From the NCBI GenBank assembly GCA_964596985.1, contig CAZQWG010000001.1, forward strand, positions 396,977 through 460,976: 64,000 nucleotides of DNA. The letters are read 5' to 3'. The stretch comes from an uncultured Candidatus Bathyarchaeia archaeon (lineage in GTDB: Archaea; Thermoproteota; Bathyarchaeia; RBG-16-48-13; GCA-020345945). Below, piece by piece: positions 31,228 to 41,206 of this stretch. The notes beneath the pieces were generated by a model. The model saw only the letters and a list, made by a program, of their open reading frames with translations, did no database searches and was not told where the DNA came from. Made by a program: the position numbers and the translations under genes. How positions within the stretch are numbered: the first letter of the stretch is position 1; the number at the start of each line of letters is the position of its first letter.

Positions 31228-31292
31228 AAACTCCACCCTTCCCCTTTATTCTTTGCTCGACCTAAGAATCTCATCTGAACCAGTAGCCCAAG

Positions 31293-32288
31293 TTAAAGTT
31301 CTAGATCTGATAAAGGTGGGGGAGCAGTAAGATCGACTAAGCTTTCTAAGATTGAACAAGCCTCACTTGGAGGAAGTACGTTAAGCTCTCTTTGGCAACT
31401 ATAGACAAGCTTCTTTATTGCTTTCTCATAGCCAACCAAGCCATCGGCTTCGTATGTGATTTTGAAGAGTTCCTTCGCCGCACCTTCCTGGATTTTCGAT
31501 CTGCGGAGTAGCGATTCTATTCTCTTCCTATTCGTTAGGTTATTCAATGCGTAGAGTATGGGTAGGGGTAAGTGTTCATACTTTATACGGTGTGGAAGTT
31601 CCCTTCTGAAGTCCAACATATCAGCGAGGTCATCTCTTAGTATAGCAATCATTCCAAGGGCTCTTCCATACCTTGCTAAAGCCTCTGTCTCTGTTTCTGA
31701 TCCTCCACCGAGAATCGACCCAATTCTCATATAGGCTTCAACGTCAGCAGCCTTCATTCGAGTTAGGCGAAGATACCTTCTGGGAGTTATATCTATCCTT
31801 CCACGGAGTTCAAGCTCTCCGGCTTCTGCATTGCTCAGCTCTAGCAGGAGGTTTTTAATCACAACCAAAATCGACTGAACTTTCCCAGGTGAGAGACCAC
31901 AGTCAATGAGGTTGGATGCTAGAGAGACAAAACCTTTCACGAATAGTATATCACCGAGAATTAAAGTGACCTCGATACCTCTCGCTCCCAGTACAGTCTG
32001 CCCATGATCCTTTCTTGGGGATTGGTCGATGATGTCATCGTGAATGTCGATTCCAGCACCTACAAGGATCAAGGAAGATGCTATGTCTTTGGTCAGTGTG
32101 GGATCTCCGCCTACCACCTCGCAAGCCAGAGACATTAATGCTGGTCTAGTGTAATCTTTCCAGTAAGAGAATAAATGTGAAAGTGCTGACCTACACATCT
32201 TATCGGAAACATTCTCTTTTGCCCACGATTCTGCTCGTCTCAATGATAATAGACTTCGCTCGGTGAGATTATCCTTAACTCTTGCCAT
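31293..32288 (-). CDS. polyprenyl (geranylgeranyl) diphosphate synthase family protein
   Basis: First Asp-rich motif IHDDIIDQS and second motif RDDLADM. Confidence 0.85.
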   Translation of the reverse strand: MARVKDNLTERSLLSLRRAESWAKENVSDKMCRSALSHLFSYWKDYTRPALMSLACEVVGGDPTLTKDIASSLILVGAGIDIHDDIIDQSPRKDHGQTVLGARGIEVTLILGDILFVKGFVSLASNLIDCGLSPGKVQSILVVIKNLLLELSNAEAGELELRGRIDITPRRYLRLTRMKAADVEAYMRIGSILGGGSETETEALARYGRALGMIAILRDDLADMLDFRRELPHRIKYEHLPLPILYALNNLTNRKRIESLLRRSKIQEGAAKELFKITYEADGLVGYEKAIKKLVYSCQRELNVLPPSEACSILESLVDLTAPPPLSDLEL

Positions 32289-32511
32289 GAAAATTCCTGC
32301 CTATTATATCATGTTTTCACAATGAAAAAGAAATAAGAAAAGACTGTCCCCTATTCGTTTGCCCTCGATGTTCTTGGCAATAAAGTGGAATGCTCTCTTG
32401 AAGTCTAAAGCTTCTAACCCCAGGGTCTTATGGGTGATTTGGTGAGCCATCTTGCTAAGGCTGAAATACTCATATGTTTTTCACCTCCCCACCAGTCTTC
32501 AAAATCTCGTT

Positions 32512-32531
32512 TGTATTCGTGTTGAACACAA
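32512..32531 (+). promoter_or_regulatory. 20-bp operator-like motif TGTATTCGTGTTGAACACAA, 44 nt upstream of the MFS ATG
   Basis: Exact copy, in gene-relative orientation, of the motif at 35620-35639. The core GTGTTGAACAC is a near-palindrome. Confidence 0.55.
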
Positions 32532-32574
32532 CTACAATAATGAAATATAAGGGTTGCTAAAGGATGATTTCATA

Positions 32575-33816
32575 ATGAGGATTCCTTACACAGAAGATAT
32601 TCAGGTATCTCGGGGCAGATTCATCATAGTTGCAAGCCTGATATCGAACTCCATTTCTTGGTACTACCTAATGGCTAACTACTTGGAATTGCTCCTGACC
32701 GACCCGAATCTTCCTTTCGACTACCTGCGGAATGAGACTATCCTTGCGAGTTTCCTTTTCTCAATACCTCTTTCGTCCATGATTGCAGAAATCATATTGG
32801 CAAGGGTCAAAACGAAAACCATTCTATTTTATTGGATTATTGTTGACATTGCTACATTGCTGTTGCCTAACCTTTTCAGATTAAGAGCCAACATTGAATT
32901 TTTGGTCTTCGCTGTATTGTTGGGTTTTTCTATCGGGTTCGGTTTTCCTCGATGTCTCACATACTTCAGTGATTCTACTTCAATGGAAGAGAGAGGACGC
33001 GTAGGAGGAATCATAATTTTCTTGACGTATGTTTTGACCCCCTTGATTCTTGCGGCAACTCAAAGTCTTGATTCTTCGGTACGTCTAATAGTATATTCGG
33101 GGTGGAGAGGACTAGGACTCGCTACAATACCCTTCATTGGGACGGCTGCATACAGCGAGCCGGTAGAGAATGCAACAACTGATAGATTACGAACCCCACA
33201 ATGGAGAAGACTCATCCTCTACCTTATTCCTTGGATGGCTTTCAGTCTTATTGATGGCGTAGACACACAGATCCTCAAGAATATCTATCCACAAGAGAAG
33301 TTTGAAATGGGGAGAATGCTGGCCTATATAACTGGTAGTTTTTCCGCGATATTAGGCGGAGTGGCAATAGATCTTATTGGTCGTCGGACAAGCATAATCT
33401 TTGCCATGGTTACTCTTGGTCTGGGATTCATTGCCGTGAGCCTAGCTCAAGCTTCCTTGGCATCATGGCTGGCATTCTGGATTGCTGAGGGTATTGCATG
33501 GGGTGTCTTATCCATCACATACGTCTTAGTCATTTGGGGGGACCTTGGATCAAAGGATGATATGGGGAAATACTATGCAATTGGAACGATCCCCTTTTTT
33601 CTCTCTCGGGCTCTAGGATTCGTTCTCAAACCTAAGTTTTCCCAATTCTCTTCAACACATCTTTTTTCAATAGTCATTCTTCTAAACTTTCTAGCAGTGA
33701 TTCCCCTACTTTTTGCAGAAGAGGTTCTGCCATCGAAGACTAGAGAGCAGAGAAAAATGAGGGAATATATAAGAAGTGCCAAACGGCTGGTGGAACAAGA
33801 CAAGGGGGGGAGTTAG
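32575..33816 (+). CDS. MFS-type transporter
   Basis: About 12 predicted TM segments with an MFS-like organisation. The start is taken at ATG 32575; the listed ORF starts at TTG 32554. Confidence 0.7.
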   Translation: MRIPYTEDIQVSRGRFIIVASLISNSISWYYLMANYLELLLTDPNLPFDYLRNETILASFLFSIPLSSMIAEIILARVKTKTILFYWIIVDIATLLLPNLFRLRANIEFLVFAVLLGFSIGFGFPRCLTYFSDSTSMEERGRVGGIIIFLTYVLTPLILAATQSLDSSVRLIVYSGWRGLGLATIPFIGTAAYSEPVENATTDRLRTPQWRRLILYLIPWMAFSLIDGVDTQILKNIYPQEKFEMGRMLAYITGSFSAILGGVAIDLIGRRTSIIFAMVTLGLGFIAVSLAQASLASWLAFWIAEGIAWGVLSITYVLVIWGDLGSKDDMGKYYAIGTIPFFLSRALGFVLKPKFSQFSSTHLFSIVILLNFLAVIPLLFAEEVLPSKTREQRKMREYIRSAKRLVEQDKGGS

Positions 33817-34583
33817 AACTTCTCGAGTTTCTCAACGACCGATGTCAAGTGCTTCACAATCGGATGGCTCGGGTGTTGCTGGACAAAGATCGACTCCCCA
33901 ACAAGAGAGAGGACGTCACAGCTACAAGGGATAGCCTCGATTACAGGGAACCTGAAGATCGAACCGAATTTCTTCACTGTTCGAGGGTCGACGTCTATCG
34001 AGGGTCCCCCCGTAGGCACCTTGTTGATTATGATTCCCGTCTTTCGTTCGAGGGTCTCATAGACCCCCTTTATCAATTCCGAGGTCCCTTCGACATCGCC
34101 TCTGTCAGGCGTTGTGACAAGCACGGCAACATCCGAGCTTATGATAGCGTTGACCGAGGAGTACTGAAATCCTGGACTCGTATCGAATATGACATAATCC
34201 ACCTCAAATTTCTTGGACAGGGTCTCTAAGGAATTGTTGATTAGACGAAGAGATTTCATCTGCCACTTTCTGTCTCTCGTTACAATTTCGCTTATTCCCT
34301 CGGTTGAAGGGTCTGCGAGTCCAACATAGAGCCTACCTGGAAGAGAGAGTTCTTCGGTAGCGTCGGAGATGGATGCGCCGATCTCGCATCGTCCATCCAA
34401 GAGGTCATTCAGCGAGAAATTGGCTCTGTCAACGTTGAAGAAGGAGTGGAGACTCGGGGCCCGGAAGTCGAAGTCAAGCAGACACACATTGCGTCCTTTC
34501 TTGGCGTAGAGGACGGCTAGATTCGTCGAGATGAATGTCTTCCCTGTTCCACCTTTGTAAGAATGGAATGCAAATGATTTCAA
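33813..34583 (-). CDS. ParA/MinD-family P-loop ATPase
   Basis: Deviant Walker A SYKGGTGKT, LLDFDFRAPS and FDTSPG. It starts 7 nt downstream of a wHTH gene. Confidence 0.85.
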   Translation of the reverse strand: MKSFAFHSYKGGTGKTFISTNLAVLYAKKGRNVCLLDFDFRAPSLHSFFNVDRANFSLNDLLDGRCEIGASISDATEELSLPGRLYVGLADPSTEGISEIVTRDRKWQMKSLRLINNSLETLSKKFEVDYVIFDTSPGFQYSSVNAIISSDVAVLVTTPDRGDVEGTSELIKGVYETLERKTGIIINKVPTGGPSIDVDPRTVKKFGSIFRFPVIEAIPCSCDVLSLVGESIFVQQHPSHPIVKHLTSVVEKLEKF

Positions 34584-34590
34584 TCTCTAC

Positions 34591-34977
34591 TCACTTCTCC
34601 ACGCGGAAATAGACATCCCTGCCTTTCCGCCTTTTTGTGACGTATCTCATCGTGTAGAGCTGGTTCAAGTAACCGCTCTCGACGGCTCTAGCCCTCCCAG
34701 TCTTCTCTGCAATCTGTTCGGCGGTCGCTTCGCCTTCCTTGCACAGCATCATCGCTGTCTTTCTGAGATGATCAGGAAGGGAGAGAAGGGTAACGACATC
34801 AAGCGGATAGTCCTTGAGATCTCCTGCCTCGATATAGTCTGATTTCCCCGACTCAAGACTGGAAAGTATCTCATCCTGTTTCTTGGAGAGCTTACCTAGA
34901 TTGCGATCAATCCTCTTCAGGCTCTCACTAATTTCTTCAAGGAGGTCCATCACATTGTCCTTTTGTCTCGTTCCCAT
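34591..34977 (-). CDS. coiled-coil + winged-helix DNA-binding protein (paralog 1)
   Basis: 128 aa. The C-terminal LLSLPDHLRKT..GEATAEQIAEKTGRARAVESGYLNQLYTMRYV..RKGR..YF is shared with 35181..35576. Confidence 0.6.
   Translation of the reverse strand: MGTRQKDNVMDLLEEISESLKRIDRNLGKLSKKQDEILSSLESGKSDYIEAGDLKDYPLDVVTLLSLPDHLRKTAMMLCKEGEATAEQIAEKTGRARAVESGYLNQLYTMRYVTKRRKGRDVYFRVEK
34640..34703 (-). repeat. 64-nt segment 62/64 identical to 35245-35308 inside the two wHTH paralogs
   Basis: Direct nucleotide comparison finds mismatches only at positions 15 and 48. The flanking coding sequence is much more diverged. Confidence 0.85.
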
Positions 34978-35180
34978 GTCCTCGACCAGACTTCCATCGA
35001 TAATGAATGAGGTCCTCGCCTAGGTTCCAATGAACTTATGTATTTAAGTTGAACTTATAAACTAAACTCAATCCCCGCACTAGCACAATCTCTCCGCTTT
35101 GAATCCTTTTTAATGCAAATGGCGGTCAGCAGAGAAGAAACTCGTTGAGCGAGATCCCTAATCAAAGCCAAAAGGGGGAC

Positions 35181-35576
35181 CTAATTACCTAAACAACAGT
35201 TGTGGACAGAAAAGTGGACAGAGCGGCCTTTCCGTTTCTTCTTAACGTATCTCATCGTATAGAGCTGGTTCAAGTAACCGCTCTCGACGGCCCTAGCCCT
35301 CCCAGTCTCTTTCGCGATTTCAGCAGCAGTCGCCTCCCCCCTTCCACGTAGTGCAATCACCGTTTTTCTAAGGTGATCCGGAAGAGAGAGAAGGGTATAG
35401 ATATCAGTCGAAGACATACCATCGACTTCGGCCTTGCCGGGAAGCAGAGCATCAGCCTCAGCTCTTTGAGGGGAGGCATATTGAGTATTGACAAGGTCAT
35501 CGATTCGATTGTCTAATCTTCTAAGGGTTTCTCGAATTTCCAGAAGAAGCAAAGGAAGTGAATCAGCGGTTCTCAT
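35181..35576 (-). CDS. coiled-coil + winged-helix DNA-binding protein (paralog 2)
   Basis: 131 aa with the same C-terminal wHTH module. The N-terminal halves have diverged. Confidence 0.6.
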   Translation of the reverse strand: MRTADSLPLLLLEIRETLRRLDNRIDDLVNTQYASPQRAEADALLPGKAEVDGMSSTDIYTLLSLPDHLRKTVIALRGRGEATAAEIAKETGRARAVESGYLNQLYTMRYVKKKRKGRSVHFSVHNCCLGN

Positions 35577-35619
35577 GGTTTGATCACAGTATTTTTTTCT
35601 TCTTCCTAGTTTTAAGTAT

Positions 35620-35639
35620 TTGTGTTCAACACGAATACA
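35620..35639 (-). promoter_or_regulatory. second exact copy of the 20-bp motif, 44 nt upstream of wHTH paralog 2
   Basis: The reverse complement of 35620-35639 equals 32512-32531, with the same spacing to the start codon. A degenerate copy (ATGTATTTAAGTTGAACTTAT) lies at 35038-35058. Confidence 0.55.
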
Positions 35640-35753
35640 GATATTGGTTTAGTGTGATGACTCGGATTCGCATGAATCAAGACAGTTCTTGACAAAAATG
35701 GCTAGTGGACCGTCCGGTCCACGAATAGATATTGGATTGCTTGCCCTCAAGAA

Positions 35754-36884
35754 CTACCACTCCAATTTCATCTGCTCAAGTCTTTCACTCTTCCCAGTCT
35801 CCAAGAATTCTCTTATCATTCCTGAAATGCTCTCTCCTACTCCAGGAATCGTTTTCAGCTCATTCTTCTTGTGCAGGTGTCGAATGCTCTGATCAAGCTT
35901 CTCAATGTTCTGGGCAGCCTTGTGATACGCCCAAGCAGCGTAAGTGTTCCCGGTCCTCATTTCCTTGAAGTAGGCGTAGAGCAAGAGCAGATTGGCGATG
36001 TCAAAATTCTCTCTCAAAGGCTTGTCGAAATTCGGTGGGGTAATATGCAATGGAATTTCGTATTCTTTGGACAGCGCGAAGAGCTTTCTGTTCATGTTGA
36101 CTACGTACTGACCGTTTGGACTCTGCGAATCACCGTAAAGCCTTTCATACTTCTCCATGAGATGCGGCCAGTTCTCCTTTAGAAGTCCAAGGAAACGGAT
36201 CTTCTGATTGCTTCTAAGAGTCATGCTTCCCGGAAGGATGTACTGGGCCTCGCTTTCGGAAGCCTGTCCAATCACGTCTCGCATATTCTCTTCGTTATCA
36301 CAGATGTAGGGTATGATGGGTGTGAAATCAACACCCGACCGAATGCCTAGACCCGATAATCTTCGAACGACTCCGAACCTCTTTTCCGGTGGTGGAGCAA
36401 AGGGCTCCAAGAAGGGAACCAGATTCTTGTCCTGTGTTATGATGGTGACAGAGACCGTGCACCACGAATTCCTCGATATCTCAGACAGGATATCTGCATC
36501 TCTCAGTATCAGATCCGATTTGGTGACTATGTGAACAGGAAAGCAGTGGTCCCTCATTATCTCAAGAATCCTTCTCGTAATTCTGTACTTCTTTTCGGCG
36601 GGTTGGTAGGCATCCGTCACACCTCCTAGCGAAATCACGTCCCTCTCCGCTGTCTTGAGTTCCCTCTCAAGCAGTTCTGGCGCGTTTGCCTTGACGTATA
36701 TTATCCTCGAGAAGTCCTCCCAGTCTTTGTGCACCAGATACTTCTCGGTGATGGCGTCGCAGTAGTTGCAGGCGAATTGGCATCCCCGGTAGGGGTTTAC
36801 GCTGTATCTACACCAGAACCAGTTGTCGCGGTATTTGTGCCTGTTCAGAACCTTCTTTGCTTTCAGTTCTCTGTATTCGACCAT
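35754..36884 (-). CDS. radical SAM protein (SplB / DNA-repair-photolyase-like, COG1533 type) fused to a PolX 8-kDa-like HhH domain
   Basis: The CQFACNYC cluster motif is near the N-terminus. The C-terminal ~110 aa (..AWAYHKAAQNIEKL..LKTIPGVGESISGMIREFLETGKSERLEQ) resembles the N-terminal 8-kDa domain of family X polymerases. Confidence 0.75.
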   Translation of the reverse strand: MVEYRELKAKKVLNRHKYRDNWFWCRYSVNPYRGCQFACNYCDAITEKYLVHKDWEDFSRIIYVKANAPELLERELKTAERDVISLGGVTDAYQPAEKKYRITRRILEIMRDHCFPVHIVTKSDLILRDADILSEISRNSWCTVSVTIITQDKNLVPFLEPFAPPPEKRFGVVRRLSGLGIRSGVDFTPIIPYICDNEENMRDVIGQASESEAQYILPGSMTLRSNQKIRFLGLLKENWPHLMEKYERLYGDSQSPNGQYVVNMNRKLFALSKEYEIPLHITPPNFDKPLRENFDIANLLLLYAYFKEMRTGNTYAAWAYHKAAQNIEKLDQSIRHLHKKNELKTIPGVGESISGMIREFLETGKSERLEQMKLEW

Positions 36885-37079: not shown

Positions 37080-37571
37080 TTGGGAGATAGGGAACCGGAG
37101 ATTTCTGGTCATATAGAGATTAGTGGTAAGGGGCGCCTCGATTTCCAAGGCAATACAGACGAGGTAATGAGTGCTATTCTGAGATTCTTGTCTGAGATCT
37201 ATCCTGCCTACAAGGTTGTCTCTGATATTACAATCAGTCTGGATCTTGAAGAACTGATGCGGGTTTTGAAGGGATTTGTTGGCGTATCCGATGAGGGGGT
37301 GGTGATCCTGAGGACGGATCTATCTGCCGATATGGCGATTATGCTTTGCCTAGTTGGATCTTACGTTTCGAATAGAATTGGAAAAGCAGATAAGTCAACG
37401 TTGACGACCGCCGATATTGCCAAGCTGGTTGGAAAAGCCGCCAAGACGATAAGAAACGAGATGCCAAGTCTGCTGAGGAAAGGATGGATAGACCGCGTTG
37501 AAAGAGGAGAGTATAGGGCTACAACGAATGGTATCGTACAGTTGCAAGACAAGATTCGATCAGGATTCTAA
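37080..37571 (+). CDS. small protein with an N-terminal beta-rich module and a C-terminal wHTH (trio member A)
   Basis: HIEISGKGRLDFQGNTDEVMSAIL at the N-terminus and LTTADIAKLVG..LLRKGWIDRVERGEY at the C-terminus. The TTG start is uncertain. Confidence 0.5.
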   Translation: MGDREPEISGHIEISGKGRLDFQGNTDEVMSAILRFLSEIYPAYKVVSDITISLDLEELMRVLKGFVGVSDEGVVILRTDLSADMAIMLCLVGSYVSNRIGKADKSTLTTADIAKLVGKAAKTIRNEMPSLLRKGWIDRVERGEYRATTNGIVQLQDKIRSGF

Positions 37572-37583
37572 GGAGTAGATGGT

Positions 37584-38027
37584 ATGACGGAAGAACGTTT
37601 CTCGATGAGGGTGCGGATTGGGAACTGCGAGATCGAACTGGACGGAAAGAAAGATGAGGTTATGGCAACTCTAGATGAATTGCCTAGGATCGTGGAAATG
37701 GTTTCCAAGAGTTTCAAGATTGCTGGAAAGGAGAATGTTAGAATCGCTCCAATGGAAGACGAACTCAAACAGATCACGCTTGTTGAATCGCCGGAGATGA
37801 TCCCGACCATTCCCAAGCCATCAGGGCCGTCGGACGCGATAATAAAACTGCTATCGACAGAATGGGGAAGAAAGCCTCGTACCTGGCAAGAAATCAATGA
37901 AGCGCTAGTGACAAACGCGATCTACTATTCGAAAGGGTCGATTACAGGTACCTTGACGAATTTGACAAAGAAGAATAAGTTACGCAGAATAAGAACAGAG
38001 CAGGGATATGGCTACGTTCTAGCATAG
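37584..38027 (+). CDS. small protein with an N-terminal beta-rich module and a C-terminal wHTH (trio member B)
   Basis: MRVRIGNCEIELDGKKDEVMATL at the N-terminus and WQEINEAL..TGTLTNLTKKNKLRRI..GYGYVLA at the C-terminus. Confidence 0.5.
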   Translation: MTEERFSMRVRIGNCEIELDGKKDEVMATLDELPRIVEMVSKSFKIAGKENVRIAPMEDELKQITLVESPEMIPTIPKPSGPSDAIIKLLSTEWGRKPRTWQEINEALVTNAIYYSKGSITGTLTNLTKKNKLRRIRTEQGYGYVLA

Positions 38028-38102
38028 CATATGTCCAATCTTTGGAGAATTACCGTCCATACGGTAATGTAGGTGACTACCCCTGATGATCGATAGACTG
38101 CA

Positions 38103-38474
38103 TCAAGGCGGGGGTCTTTTTTGGACGTAGTGGTATTGTCGTGCTCCTCCTTGCCTAGTGAGCACTCCTTCCCTCACCAAGTCTACTAAGGTATGTGCGA
38201 CTGCTGTGCGGTCGTAGTGGTAGCCTTGTCGTGCCATCTCCTCGTGTACTTCTCCCAGGTTTCTAGATACGGAGAACCAACCTTCTTCCCAAAGCTCTGT
38301 GATTATCGTCTTGCAAGTCTGTTTCTTTGGGATAGTTTTCTGCGATTTTGAGATGTTGGATATCTTGGACAACGTCTCGCTCTGTTTTTGAAGCGCGGTT
38401 ACTAAATCCTCTACAGCTGACTGTAGTTGGGATTCTTCACACTCGATCTCAGCTTCGACTTCCCCGATCGTCAT
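38103..38474 (-). CDS. small protein with an N-terminal beta-rich module and a C-terminal wHTH (trio member C)
   Basis: The start is taken at the internal M (MTIGEVEAEIECEES). The C-terminus reads LGEVHEEM..VAHTLVDLVREGVLTR..QYHYVQK. It is divergent from the NurA-like gene. Confidence 0.5.
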   Translation of the reverse strand: MTIGEVEAEIECEESQLQSAVEDLVTALQKQSETLSKISNISKSQKTIPKKQTCKTIITELWEEGWFSVSRNLGEVHEEMARQGYHYDRTAVAHTLVDLVREGVLTRQGGARQYHYVQKRPPP

Positions 38475-38521
38475 CTTCAATCTGATCGGGGGTTTCTTCG
38501 ACAACGGACATGCCTCTATTG

Positions 38522-38611
38522 AATTGTGCAATATAATTGTGCAACACAACACTTAAATAGGCTCTCTCTGTTGTCATATTGTTGAATTGCACAATAAAAG
38601 CATTGTGTGCA
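38522..38611. promoter_or_regulatory. cluster of AATTGTGCAA-type repeats in the divergent promoter between trio member C and the NurA-like gene
   Basis: There are direct copies at 38522-38531 and 38535-38544, an inverted copy TTGCACAAT at 38587-38595, and a related ATTGTGTGCA at 38602-38611. Confidence 0.5.
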
Positions 38612-38622
38612 GGTGAGTCGAC

Positions 38623-39720
38623 ATGCAGGAGATAGGACATGTCTTTGAGTGTGATTTCAGCAACCAAGAATTCGAAGAGTTCGCCAGCCTCGCACGCATG
38701 TCCATTGAACACGCGGACAGGAACCTGAGCATAGACTATCCAGAGCCATCATGGAACCCCCTCACGAAACGGCATACCAGCAAGACCGAGACTAGCCTGA
38801 ACGAGCATAGAACCAGATACCTTACCGCAATCAAACTCAACCCTGTCAAGGACGGGTCACCCGTAGTAGCAGTCGACGTCTCCATACTCGGTCTAGGAGA
38901 AACCCAGTCAGGCACCATCTACGCGATCCGAGGGACAGCGGTCTCCAGGAAGGACGGGAGATACCAGTACAGCCGGCTAGGTCCCTTCCTTTTCCACATC
39001 AACGGCGACAACAACAGAAACATCGATGGAACCCCAACAGTCCGCTACCCGATACCGTCGGTGGATGCAAGAAAGCTGGGAGGACCATACGTGTACAGAG
39101 GGTTGTTGACCGTCTTCGAGACTATGCTGCGCGAGAAGGTGGCGAAGAAGTACAGTGGTGCCATCGTTCTCTGGGACGGGTCGCTCTCCATTCTCGCCAT
39201 GGAGGAGGAGATTAGAGCGAACAGACTGTTACTGGAGCTGGCGAGAGAAAGAGGAAACAGGATTGTAGGACTCTCGAAGAAGACGTACCTCTTCTCTCCT
39301 CAAGGGACTAAAGACCCCCTGAGGAAACACGCTGGACCGTGCCTGATCGACATCGATTGCGCAGTCCAGCGAACTAGAAGACTTCTCCTCTTGGGCAGAG
39401 TCTACGTCGCAAAGCTTGCCCGCAACGGACTCTCGTTTCGATTGGATGTCGACAAGGAAATCCCCAAGGCAGAGAGAATATCGACCGTAGAGAAGATGAT
39501 CGGGAACGATCTCACCAGAGACGGATACCCCGAGACCCTTCGCCTGGCCCACATATTCTCCAAGTTCAACGCAACAGAAGTGATCGGTATGCACCGATTC
39601 CTCGACGAGAACTACGGTCTCAGGGTCCTCGAGTACCCGAGTATCCGACAGATACTCTTCGGACCGTTCGCAGGACCCCACTCGAAGGAGCCAGACGCAA
39701 ACCATGTTAAACCTGTATAA
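38623..39720 (+). CDS. NurA-like nuclease
   Basis: VVAVDVS, IVLWDGSL, IVGLSKK and GYPETLRLAH match the conserved NurA-domain acidic/His motifs. Confidence 0.7.
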   Translation: MQEIGHVFECDFSNQEFEEFASLARMSIEHADRNLSIDYPEPSWNPLTKRHTSKTETSLNEHRTRYLTAIKLNPVKDGSPVVAVDVSILGLGETQSGTIYAIRGTAVSRKDGRYQYSRLGPFLFHINGDNNRNIDGTPTVRYPIPSVDARKLGGPYVYRGLLTVFETMLREKVAKKYSGAIVLWDGSLSILAMEEEIRANRLLLELARERGNRIVGLSKKTYLFSPQGTKDPLRKHAGPCLIDIDCAVQRTRRLLLLGRVYVAKLARNGLSFRLDVDKEIPKAERISTVEKMIGNDLTRDGYPETLRLAHIFSKFNATEVIGMHRFLDENYGLRVLEYPSIRQILFGPFAGPHSKEPDANHVKPV

Positions 39721-41206
39721 GATCGAGAACGGGGAGGTACAGATCATCAGCTGCCCTCCTCAAGGAATACGCAAGGGAGACTATCTCTCGATCGAAGACA
39801 CCTCGACCAAGAAGAGTCTGATCATACAGGTTGTAGAGATAGACTACGCGAACGTACCAGGCATACTCGAAGACATCCTACGAAGATCATCGATCCGCAA
39901 GGTGAACGGAGAGGATTTCGATCCTCTGGAAGTCAGGTCGTACGTCGAACTCGTCAAAGACGCAAAGGTTCTACGATGCAGGATACGAGGAGCCCTAGTA
40001 GAAGGCAAGTTCACGGACGACGTCTCCTGGATACCGGTAAGATCCAAATCAAGGGTGATCGGCATCCCGGATGAGACACTCCTCAAACTGATCAGCTCGG
40101 ACCAGCCCTTACCGATACATCTTGGGAAGACGCGTAAGAACGTGAACGTAGAAATCGACGCGAGAGCGATAGATGCCGGCCTCAACATAATCTCGGGTAA
40201 GAAGGGAACAGGAAAATCAAACCTCTCGAAAAACATGCTTCTCGGGCTGATGAGTCAGGGAGGTATCTGTCTCGTCTTCGATATCAACGGCGAGTATACT
40301 AGGCTAGGCTTCAAGTCCACCGGCGAGAAGAATCAACACTACGAAAGGATAAGAGTCCTAACTCCGGGCTTGAATTTCAAGACCGACCTGAAGTACGCTG
40401 GGCTGGGAAGCATTCTCTCGATAATGCGGTCGGTCATGGACACCCCTGGAACCTCAACGTGGGAGTTTCGACGCATCTGGAAGGAACTTGAGAGAAGAGG
40501 CGAGATATCTATCGGAAAGATCTTCAGGTCAATCGATGCGGTCAACCACGAATACGTCAGAGACGCCCTCTTCCGCAGGTTTCAAAGCCTGGTAGACACA
40601 GGGTTCTTCACTGACGACCCCAAGTCCACCACGGCCTTCGAGAGACTGTTCACCGAGATAGCTGGGGGAGGAACGATCGTCCTGGATATGAAGGATCTGC
40701 CTCCTATGGTTCGGAAGATCGTCGTCGAATTCGTTCTGAGCAAACTCTACCAGTTGCTGAAACGCCAGATAGTGAGAGCAGTATTCCTCTTTGCAGAAGA
40801 AGCCCACCTCTACCTCAGAGACACCTACTGGGAAGACATAGTAACCAGGATGAGGCACCTAGGGGTCTTCGTCACCTTCGTGACCAACCAGCCGGAGACC
40901 ATAAACCAGAACATCTTTCGGCAATCGGACAACATCTTCCTGTTCAACTTCACGAACGAGAACGACCTGAAGTCGATCTCCAGAGCCTCAAGAATAGACA
41001 CCTACACGATAGAGTCCATCACCCGAGAACTCCCGGCTTACCATTGTCTAGTATTCGGAAAAGTGACTAGAGACCTGCCACTCGTCGTCGGGATAGACCG
41101 GCTGGATGTCCAAACGCAGGGCGAAACCAGGTTCTTCTTTTCACCACCAGAAGACCACGCCAAATTGAAGACAGCGCCGATAAGCCCATACAACGCAACC
41201 GCTTGA
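39704..41206 (+). CDS. HerA-like (DUF87-type) ATPase, short form
   Basis: Barrel-like N-terminus, Walker A GKKGTGKS and Walker B VFLFAEEAH. It overlaps the NurA-like gene by 17 nt. Confidence 0.8.
   Translation: MLNLYKIENGEVQIISCPPQGIRKGDYLSIEDTSTKKSLIIQVVEIDYANVPGILEDILRRSSIRKVNGEDFDPLEVRSYVELVKDAKVLRCRIRGALVEGKFTDDVSWIPVRSKSRVIGIPDETLLKLISSDQPLPIHLGKTRKNVNVEIDARAIDAGLNIISGKKGTGKSNLSKNMLLGLMSQGGICLVFDINGEYTRLGFKSTGEKNQHYERIRVLTPGLNFKTDLKYAGLGSILSIMRSVMDTPGTSTWEFRRIWKELERRGEISIGKIFRSIDAVNHEYVRDALFRRFQSLVDTGFFTDDPKSTTAFERLFTEIAGGGTIVLDMKDLPPMVRKIVVEFVLSKLYQLLKRQIVRAVFLFAEEAHLYLRDTYWEDIVTRMRHLGVFVTFVTNQPETINQNIFRQSDNIFLFNFTNENDLKSISRASRIDTYTIESITRELPAYHCLVFGKVTRDLPLVVGIDRLDVQTQGETRFFFSPPEDHAKLKTAPISPYNATA

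Follow-up and report, generated by a model that had tools for sequence, protein, structure and literature searches.

A radical SAM barrel fused to a PolX-type DNA-binding domain

The stretch of DNA analysed here (the window, 64,000 nucleotides; positions 396,977 to 460,976 of contig CAZQWG010000001.1, assembly GCA_964596985.1) comes from an uncultured Candidatus Bathyarchaeia archaeon. On its minus strand, at window positions 35754..36884, it carries a gene for a protein of 376 residues in which an S-adenosylmethionine (SAM) radical enzyme domain resembling spore photoproduct lyase (SPL) is followed by a tail homologous to the 8-kDa helix-hairpin-helix (HhH) domain of the PolX DNA polymerases. 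We find the fusion to be real, and its combination of an SPL-like radical SAM enzyme with a PolX DNA-binding tail to be biologically suggestive. We consider it probable, with some reserve, that the fusion is a two-domain, DNA-directed radical SAM enzyme that would process a DNA lesion, with the HhH tail as its DNA anchor.

The gene was delimited from the list of open reading frames (ORFs) and the translation. The ORF runs from an ATG to a stop codon that lies within the span, and the plus-strand frame over the same positions is riddled with stops; the start and the domain order are common to more than 115 full-length homologue clusters. Because the Pfam matches of both domains exceed their curated thresholds, far beyond chance, we regard the gene as a genuine two-domain fusion. 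Residues 1-285 (36030..36884, minus strand) constitute an SPL-like radical SAM partial TIM barrel of the COG1533 type, recognised by Pfam, NCBIfam, a structural model and Foldseek. The Pfam Radical_SAM family (PF04055) matched residues 29-202 (E 2.6e-11, 44.4 bits with a cut-off of 29.5), and the CxxxCxxC motif is found in the translation as CQFACNYC, residues 35-42 (36759..36782, minus strand). Its three cysteines, Cys35, Cys39 and Cys42, do not vary in alignments A1 (25 fused homologues) and A3, and in alignment A2 they are conserved to 90% or more. The nearest NCBIfam family for residues 3-276 was that of Rv2578c (NF038135; E 6e-57, 193 bits compared with a curated cut-off of 430), followed by that of PA0069 (NF033668; E 6.6e-55, 186.5 compared with 360 bits); by these scores, the barrel is a relative of the two families and not an equivalog.

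An AlphaFold2 model, for which A1 was the input, had a mean predicted local distance difference test (pLDDT) score of 86.6 and a predicted template modelling score of 0.88, and was poorly defined only in the loop of residues 44-59 that follows the cluster motif. In an exhaustive structural comparison, model residues 1-281 superposed best on SPL (4fhc_A; Z 19.6, root-mean-square deviation (rmsd) 3.1 Å, 256 aligned residues), the next radical SAM structure being found at Z 15.8, that is 3.8 Z lower. The modelled barrel gave Z scores of 12-20 with many radical SAM enzymes of solved structure, as expected of a partial (beta/alpha) TIM-barrel fold, and SPL was also the top Foldseek match (E 2.4e-7). 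At the sequence level, a profile built from 150 diverse family members had SPL as its best match among Protein Data Bank (PDB) sequences (E 6e-5), through the cluster motif and an EP...RL motif, the HMMER alignment of the profile to SPL being made of two short segments only. An initial annotation of this DNA, made from the letters alone, had already proposed a radical SAM enzyme with CQFACNYC in a COG1533-like setting; Pfam, NCBIfam and the SPL-like model bear this out, and the strand, which it did not give, is the minus strand.

The tail, residues 291-376 (35757..36014, minus strand), is a PolX-type 8-kDa HhH domain without the lyase lysine, identified by Pfam, by matches to PDB sequences and by the model. 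Pfam HHH_8 (PF14716) matched residues 292-365 (E 6.5e-15, 55.7 bits with a cut-off of 30) and the NCBIfam PolX model matched residues 295-373 (E 9e-10). When the tail alone was compared with PDB sequences, the PolX of Thermus thermophilus was retrieved at E 1.6e-6 and the isolated 8-kDa domain of DNA polymerase beta (pol beta) at E 2.4e-5. The model, whose tail has pLDDT values of 85-96 throughout, gave the same answer: residues 291-376 superposed on residues 1-88 of the Thermus PolX (3au2_A) with Z 14.5, rmsd 2.0 Å, 86 aligned residues and 30% identity, and residues 291-375 superposed on residues 10-91 of human pol beta (4rpx_A) with Z 12.7, rmsd 1.7 Å, 82 aligned residues and 35% identity; pol lambda, pol mu and TdT came after the PolX matches. 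The sequence IPGVG (35835..35849, minus strand) forms the hairpin of the HhH motif and corresponds to L62-G66 of pol beta. The alignment by eye in the initial annotation was thus right about the homology, the profile search having returned HHH_8 and PolX and no unrelated helical domain, and the pol beta superposition agreeing with it; its length of about 110 residues was too generous, since the domain covers about 86 residues, and residues 265-290 belong to the last part of the radical SAM domain and to a linker.

Two minor features lie at the borders of the tail. Nineteen of the 120 close homologues, mostly of ANME-1 type, carry between barrel and tail a 12-residue linker insertion starting Q-x-T-L-I-P (residues about 292-305 of homologues P0080-P0118, columns 319-330 of A1), which is absent from the protein studied here. 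At the other end, the last codon (35757-35759) encodes Trp376, and the final residue is Trp in 81 of the 120; this conserved aromatic terminus could act as a signal for docking, or it could simply cap the last helix.

The tail has lost the lyase lysine and most of the 5'-phosphate pocket

We then looked at the residues on which the function of the pol beta domain depends. Pol beta residues were mapped onto the tail through the HMMER alignment, and conservation was counted over the 120 closest homologue clusters. We take His34, Lys35, Tyr39, Lys60 and Lys68 of pol beta to line the 5'-phosphate pocket and Lys72 to be the Schiff-base nucleophile. The position of Lys72 is occupied by Met356; over the homologues it is Val in 51, Thr in 35, Ile in 23 and Lys in none, and Met also occurs. 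Lys68 is replaced by Ser352, with Lys in 5 of the 120 and mostly Ser, Asn or Thr elsewhere, and Lys35 by Ala316, a position held by Ala or Ser with Lys in a single homologue. The equivalent of Lys60 is Lys344, a variable position at which Glu is commonest, and His34 is replaced by Tyr315. Only the equivalent of Tyr39, Tyr320, is kept by the family, in 120 of 120. Next to it, His321 is found in 119 close homologues and a Lys or Arg at position 322 in 115, and the hairpin residues Gly348, Val349 and Gly350 are found in 103, 111 and 117, respectively.

The genome provides an internal control. It encodes a complete PolX of 576 residues (HHH_8, HHH_5, palm, thumb and PHP domains; G000:C1:121368-123095, locus L001:1471-3198), whose own 8-kDa domain shares 32% identity with the tail and has a lysine at the Lys72 position. 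The PolX 8-kDa domain of pol beta, pol lambda and the bacterial and archaeal PolX proteins thus has in common with the tail its five-helix fold, the HhH hairpin, Tyr39 and the 'FL.TGK' helix; it differs in being N-terminal in the polymerases and C-terminal in the radical SAM fusion, and the fusion is without Lys72, Lys35 and Lys68.

These data bear on the function that the initial annotation had lent to the tail, the binding of 5'-phosphates in gapped DNA by a domain of the deoxyribose phosphate (dRP) lyase type, which would bring radical chemistry to DNA gaps or ends. In its full form this explanation holds that the tail works like the pol beta domain, binding 5'-phosphates at gaps or ends and possibly acting as a dRP or abasic-site lyase, in concert with NurA and HerA. 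The homology is true, and the Tyr39 equivalent and the adjacent basic residue are conserved; however, the Lys72 position has no lysine in any of the 120, more than 95% of them are without Lys35 and Lys68, and Lys60 is variable, whereas the genome's own PolX keeps its lysine. We therefore rejected the reading as a dRP lyase with a 5'-phosphate pocket, and consider the explanation as a whole, including its NurA/HerA part (see below), quite unlikely. Targeting of the protein to 5'-phosphates, gaps or ends could be argued by analogy with pol beta, and most of the residue basis of the analogy is lost; generic binding of the DNA backbone by the conserved HhH hairpin seems the safer reading.

The opposite view, in which the tail would play no part in DNA binding and be either a decayed remnant or a module for protein-protein interaction, could draw on the same loss of the catalytic and phosphate-binding lysines, on a GxG hairpin that is degraded in about half of the more divergent representatives, and on a nearly neutral isoelectric point (8.2). 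Yet within the clade of this gene the tail is conserved as much as the barrel (mean column identity in A1 of 68%), and it is modelled with high scores. As Tyr320, His321 and the GVG hairpin are near-invariant in the 120 close homologues, the tail is under selection, and we find the relic hypothesis scarcely credible. What the residues point to is a selected, intact and presumably DNA-binding HhH module that is not a dRP lyase, because the Lys72 position is never Lys in the close homologues.

Comparison with spore photoproduct lyase and its bacterial relatives

SPL (SplB; PDB 4FHC-4FHG, from Geobacillus thermodenitrificans) belongs to the same COG1533 radical SAM clade as the archaeal fusion protein. 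The two proteins have in common the CxxxCxxC motif, a tyrosine within it (Tyr96 of SPL, Tyr41 here) and the EP...RL motif, but they are only 11-12% identical; the N-terminal 57 residues of SPL are missing from the fusion protein and the PolX HhH tail is missing from SPL. Tyr96 and Tyr98, which flank the last cluster cysteine, are the radical-relay tyrosines of the G. thermodenitrificans enzyme. In SPL the hydrogen donor is Cys140 and the substrate is 5-thyminyl-5,6-dihydrothymine. The hosts of the fusion are strict anaerobes of dark habitats that do not sporulate, and the UV spore photoproduct is for this reason an unlikely substrate.

To our knowledge, SPL is the sole radical SAM enzyme with a proven DNA-repair reaction, and we know of no lesion attributed in two decades to its relatives from non-sporulating organisms, some of which are SOS-induced in pathogens. 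The two bacterial families nearest to the barrel are likewise linked to DNA-damage regulons: the SOS genes of P. aeruginosa include PA0069 (bioRxiv 10.1101/2022.03.14.484287), and Rv2578c has a LexA site with RecA-dependent induction (PMC3381160). The models of both families stop short of the region of the tail. A Bacteroidetes SOS-like network includes COG1533 (PMC8565304), and "SplB-like radical SAM photolyases" have been linked to ImuB-C (PMC3765255). In RadicalSAM.org, SPL, DUF5131 and "MJ0683-like" proteins are sub-groups of a single megacluster (PMC9477430). Our literature search returned no paper that describes the HHH_8 fusion and no characterisation of any non-SPL member.

Distribution of the fusion

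In a search of 5.8 billion proteins, more than 115 clusters with 54-79% identity had the same precomputed architecture, PF04055 plus PF14716, and those clusters that bore a name went by "radical SAM protein" or "DNA repair photolyase" alone. Their sources were ANME-1/Methanophagales, Syntrophoarchaeum, Nitrososphaerales and some bacterial bins. The loci in species representatives belong to Bathyarchaeia, Hadarchaeota, Thermoproteota, Methanosarcinales and Methanophagales, and a 37%-identical branch was found in the Freyarchaeota, of the Asgard group. ESM Atlas clusters of the same architecture have few labelled members, mostly Chloroflexota, and are a lead only. The phyletic survey proposed with the initial annotation thus reveals a large family of patchy occurrence among anaerobic archaea (Bathyarchaeia, ANME-1, Hadarchaeota, Asgard). 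The fusion is widespread and is already carried in public collections as an automatic two-domain annotation; the window's copy is an ordinary, partner-less member of the family and no new architecture.

More widely, 7827 proteins at 50% clustering matched at E up to 0.001. Using an iterated hidden Markov model, we found the tail in about 54 of 151 sequences, namely the fusion protein and the best 150 representatives of the 50% clusters. In a tree built on the barrel only, the tailed sequences fell within one part of about 80 rows, where many of the tail-less rows are short fragments, and a separate group of 62 rows was almost wholly tail-less. At the genome level the fused gene was sparse: it was present in 3 of the 201 genomes that were sampled from the phylum of the window, in about 9-10 of 150 genomes of its class (that of the Bathyarchaeia locus L004) and in about 10 of 79 genomes of the class holding ANME-1, several copies of the latter being frameshifted, deleted or stop-filled. 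Three such broken copies from Methanophagales/Methanosarcinales lie at G202:C130:7791-8655, G204:C133:10343-11486 and G402:C98:26671-27729; one is split over two frames, one is without residues 153-232 and one has five in-frame stops, which may reflect decay or assembly errors.

The genome of the window has three COG1533 paralogues, and the tail is present on this one only. The first tail-less paralogue (319 residues; G000:C1:348796-349542, L021:1111-2070, minus strand) adjoins a gene for a TrmO-like tRNA methyltransferase, and the second (287 residues) lies at G000:C7:93270-94061 (L022:911-1774).

The fused gene is linked to AlkD-like and other repair genes at other loci

Genes of the AlkD-like HEAT-repeat family (PF08713) were looked for around the 22 fused loci of 21 genomes in which the fusion had already been identified. 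A PF08713 match was found on the same strand, directly upstream or at most 1.4 kb upstream, at nine of the 22 loci, one of these matches being a remnant. In L018 (Syntrophoarchaeum), L007 and L008 the AlkD-like gene directly precedes the fused gene in the same orientation; in L007 a methylpurine-DNA glycosylase (MPG) gene lies downstream of the fused gene, and in L008 a SNF2 helicase gene. The association also exists as a fusion, P0185 (551 residues) being a tail-less COG1533 radical SAM protein with an N-terminal HEAT/AlkD-like (PF08713) domain. The two-gene cassette and the window's gene belong to the same fused enzyme family, and differ in that the upstream AlkD-like gene is not at the locus studied here.

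In the nearest Bathyarchaeia relatives (65-67% identity), an ORF of 168-169 residues precedes the fused gene by about 25 nucleotides on the same strand (L004:7467-7973, L005:1445-1951, L006:7114-7620 and L017:7467-7976). Both copies that were tested or annotated (L004 and L017) encode a CxxCxxCC domain (PF03692). The ORF is not beside the window's gene; its product may be an alternative partner. As a side observation, the MPG domain of L007 (L007:9667-10710) is, unusually, part of a fusion with a domain of FmdE type.

A DNA-directed radical SAM enzyme as the favoured explanation

The explanation that we favour builds on the identity of both domains, on the conservation of the fusion across many anaerobic archaea, on the absence of the lyase residues from the tail and on the repair-gene linkage at other loci; it supposes that the protein binds DNA, that its radical chemistry takes place on DNA, and that the outcome is repair and not modification. 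In this scheme, Cys35, Cys39 and Cys42 of the barrel would hold a [4Fe-4S] cluster, and the HhH tail would grip the DNA backbone as a sequence-independent anchor that keeps the barrel on duplex DNA. The barrel would accept a flipped-out damaged nucleotide, the cluster would cleave SAM reductively to give a 5'-deoxyadenosyl radical, as in SPL, and this radical would take a hydrogen atom, so that the lesion is reversed or processed without oxygen or light. Candidate lesions are alkylation damage, suggested because AlkD and MPG are neighbours at other loci, and anoxic radical-induced cross-links. The window's genome has no flavin photolyase and no AlkB-type dioxygenase.

Several observations weigh against this explanation. 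The tail, at pI 8.2, is only mildly basic. The SPL family models TIGR04070 and PF20903 did not match the fusion protein at E up to 1, and SPL orthology was rejected on that ground; weak PF20903 matches were found in 16 of 81 diverse relatives. In a short local alignment of the cluster motif, SPL Tyr98 stands opposite Asp43, which is invariant in A1, and the chemistry may therefore differ from that of SPL. This copy is without an AlkD-like partner, the window's genome, 98.5% complete, gave no PF08713 match, and the gene context is uninformative or island-like. Finally, no demonstrated substrate for any member of the non-SPL branch was found in the literature, and a 2026 paper presents the repair role of an Rv2578c-family protein as speculative (PMC12924846).

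Some of these points could be taken to indicate a nucleic-acid modification enzyme, acting on DNA or possibly on structured RNA, in which the HhH tail would only provide affinity for the substrate. Most nucleic-acid-directed radical SAM enzymes are modifiers (RlmN/Cfr, MiaB, TYW1), and several such enzymes are among the fold neighbours of the model. The replacement of SPL Tyr98 by Asp, the three COG1533 paralogues in the genome with one of them beside TrmO, the patchy and accessory-like distribution and the match of the phage family phrog_13321 to the barrel are all compatible with modification. Against it stand the repeated association with AlkD-like glycosylase-family genes, MPG and SNF2, the control of the bacterial relatives by the SOS response, and the absence of any methyltransferase or restriction partner adjoining the gene, save one unrelated class I methyltransferase in L009. 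We thus judge modification unlikely and keep lesion processing as the preferred role.

The combination of a PolX DNA-binding domain with frequent AlkD coupling is the clearest sign that SPL-related enzymes act on DNA, and a small single-chain protein with a predicted DNA anchor offers a tractable entry point to them. A bolder version of our explanation, which we put forward only tentatively, is that the family represents the first radical SAM DNA-repair enzyme besides SPL, carrying out oxygen- and light-independent direct reversal in strict anaerobes, anchored by its PolX domain and often working with an AlkD-like lesion binder. If true, the target would be damage that aerobes handle by O2-dependent enzymes or by excision repair; examples would be radical base dealkylation, as an anaerobic counterpart of AlkB, or the splitting of anoxic radical-induced methylene-bridged or cyclo-nucleotide cross-links. 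Were the substrate to be identified, it would tell us how strict anaerobes among the archaea, living in sediments and vents, repair damage when neither oxygen nor light is available.

Neighbourhood of the gene in the window

Two winged helix-turn-helix (wHTH) genes and a ParA-like gene lie on one flank of the fusion gene, and on the other flank three small wHTH-like ORFs (37080-38552) separate it from a NurA-like/HerA-like pair located 1.7 kb away; its upstream neighbour, a wHTH ORF, is divergently oriented. In a relative with 79% identity (L015/L016), synteny extends from the radical SAM gene as far as HerA. For four relatives of greater divergence (L017-L020), the genes listed within 6-8 kb do not include NurA/HerA, and the flanking genes are unrelated at three other fused loci. 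The initial annotation had placed the fusion gene next to the NurA/HerA-like pair: the pair is indeed nearby, but it is not directly adjacent, since the three wHTH-like ORFs intervene, and the arrangement is not conserved beyond one close relative. The pair was not taken as a partner because L017-L020 are without it and the fusion protein matched none of the PADLOC models. Functional coupling to NurA/HerA was accordingly rejected as a conserved feature, the adjacency being limited to the window and to L015/L016. For the pol beta-like explanation discussed above, proximity and synteny in one relative are points in favour of a concert with NurA/HerA, and the distant loci are points against it.

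The same region could be viewed as a local mobile or defence island of which the fusion, the wHTH trio and the NurA-like/HerA-like pair would all be functional components. The short HerA-like ATPase (39704-41206) matched the PADLOC HerA models and mad8 (E 1.5e-15); nothing specific was matched by the NurA-like neighbour or by the wHTH trio. The G+C content is 0.43-0.47 at 32-38 kb compared with about 0.51-0.54 in segments further out on both sides, the block up to HerA is syntenic in L015/L016, and a 4.5-kb indel abuts the gene. However, membership of a defence system was rejected for want of a PADLOC match to the fusion protein, the adjacency is limited to the 79%-identical relative, and the distant homologues are found in unrelated contexts, all of which make an island component very unlikely.

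The indel corresponds to positions 31248-35744 (4.5 kb), which have no counterpart in L015; there, 164 bp separate AFOR from the radical SAM gene. The stretch has the low G+C content of 0.43-0.47 and contains a polyprenyl-synthase-like gene, an MFS transporter gene, the gene for a ParA-like ATPase and two paralogous wHTH genes, and reflects either an insertion here or a deletion in L015. A second indel opposes window positions 38022-38099 to about 930 bp with a gene for a protein of 194 residues in L015.

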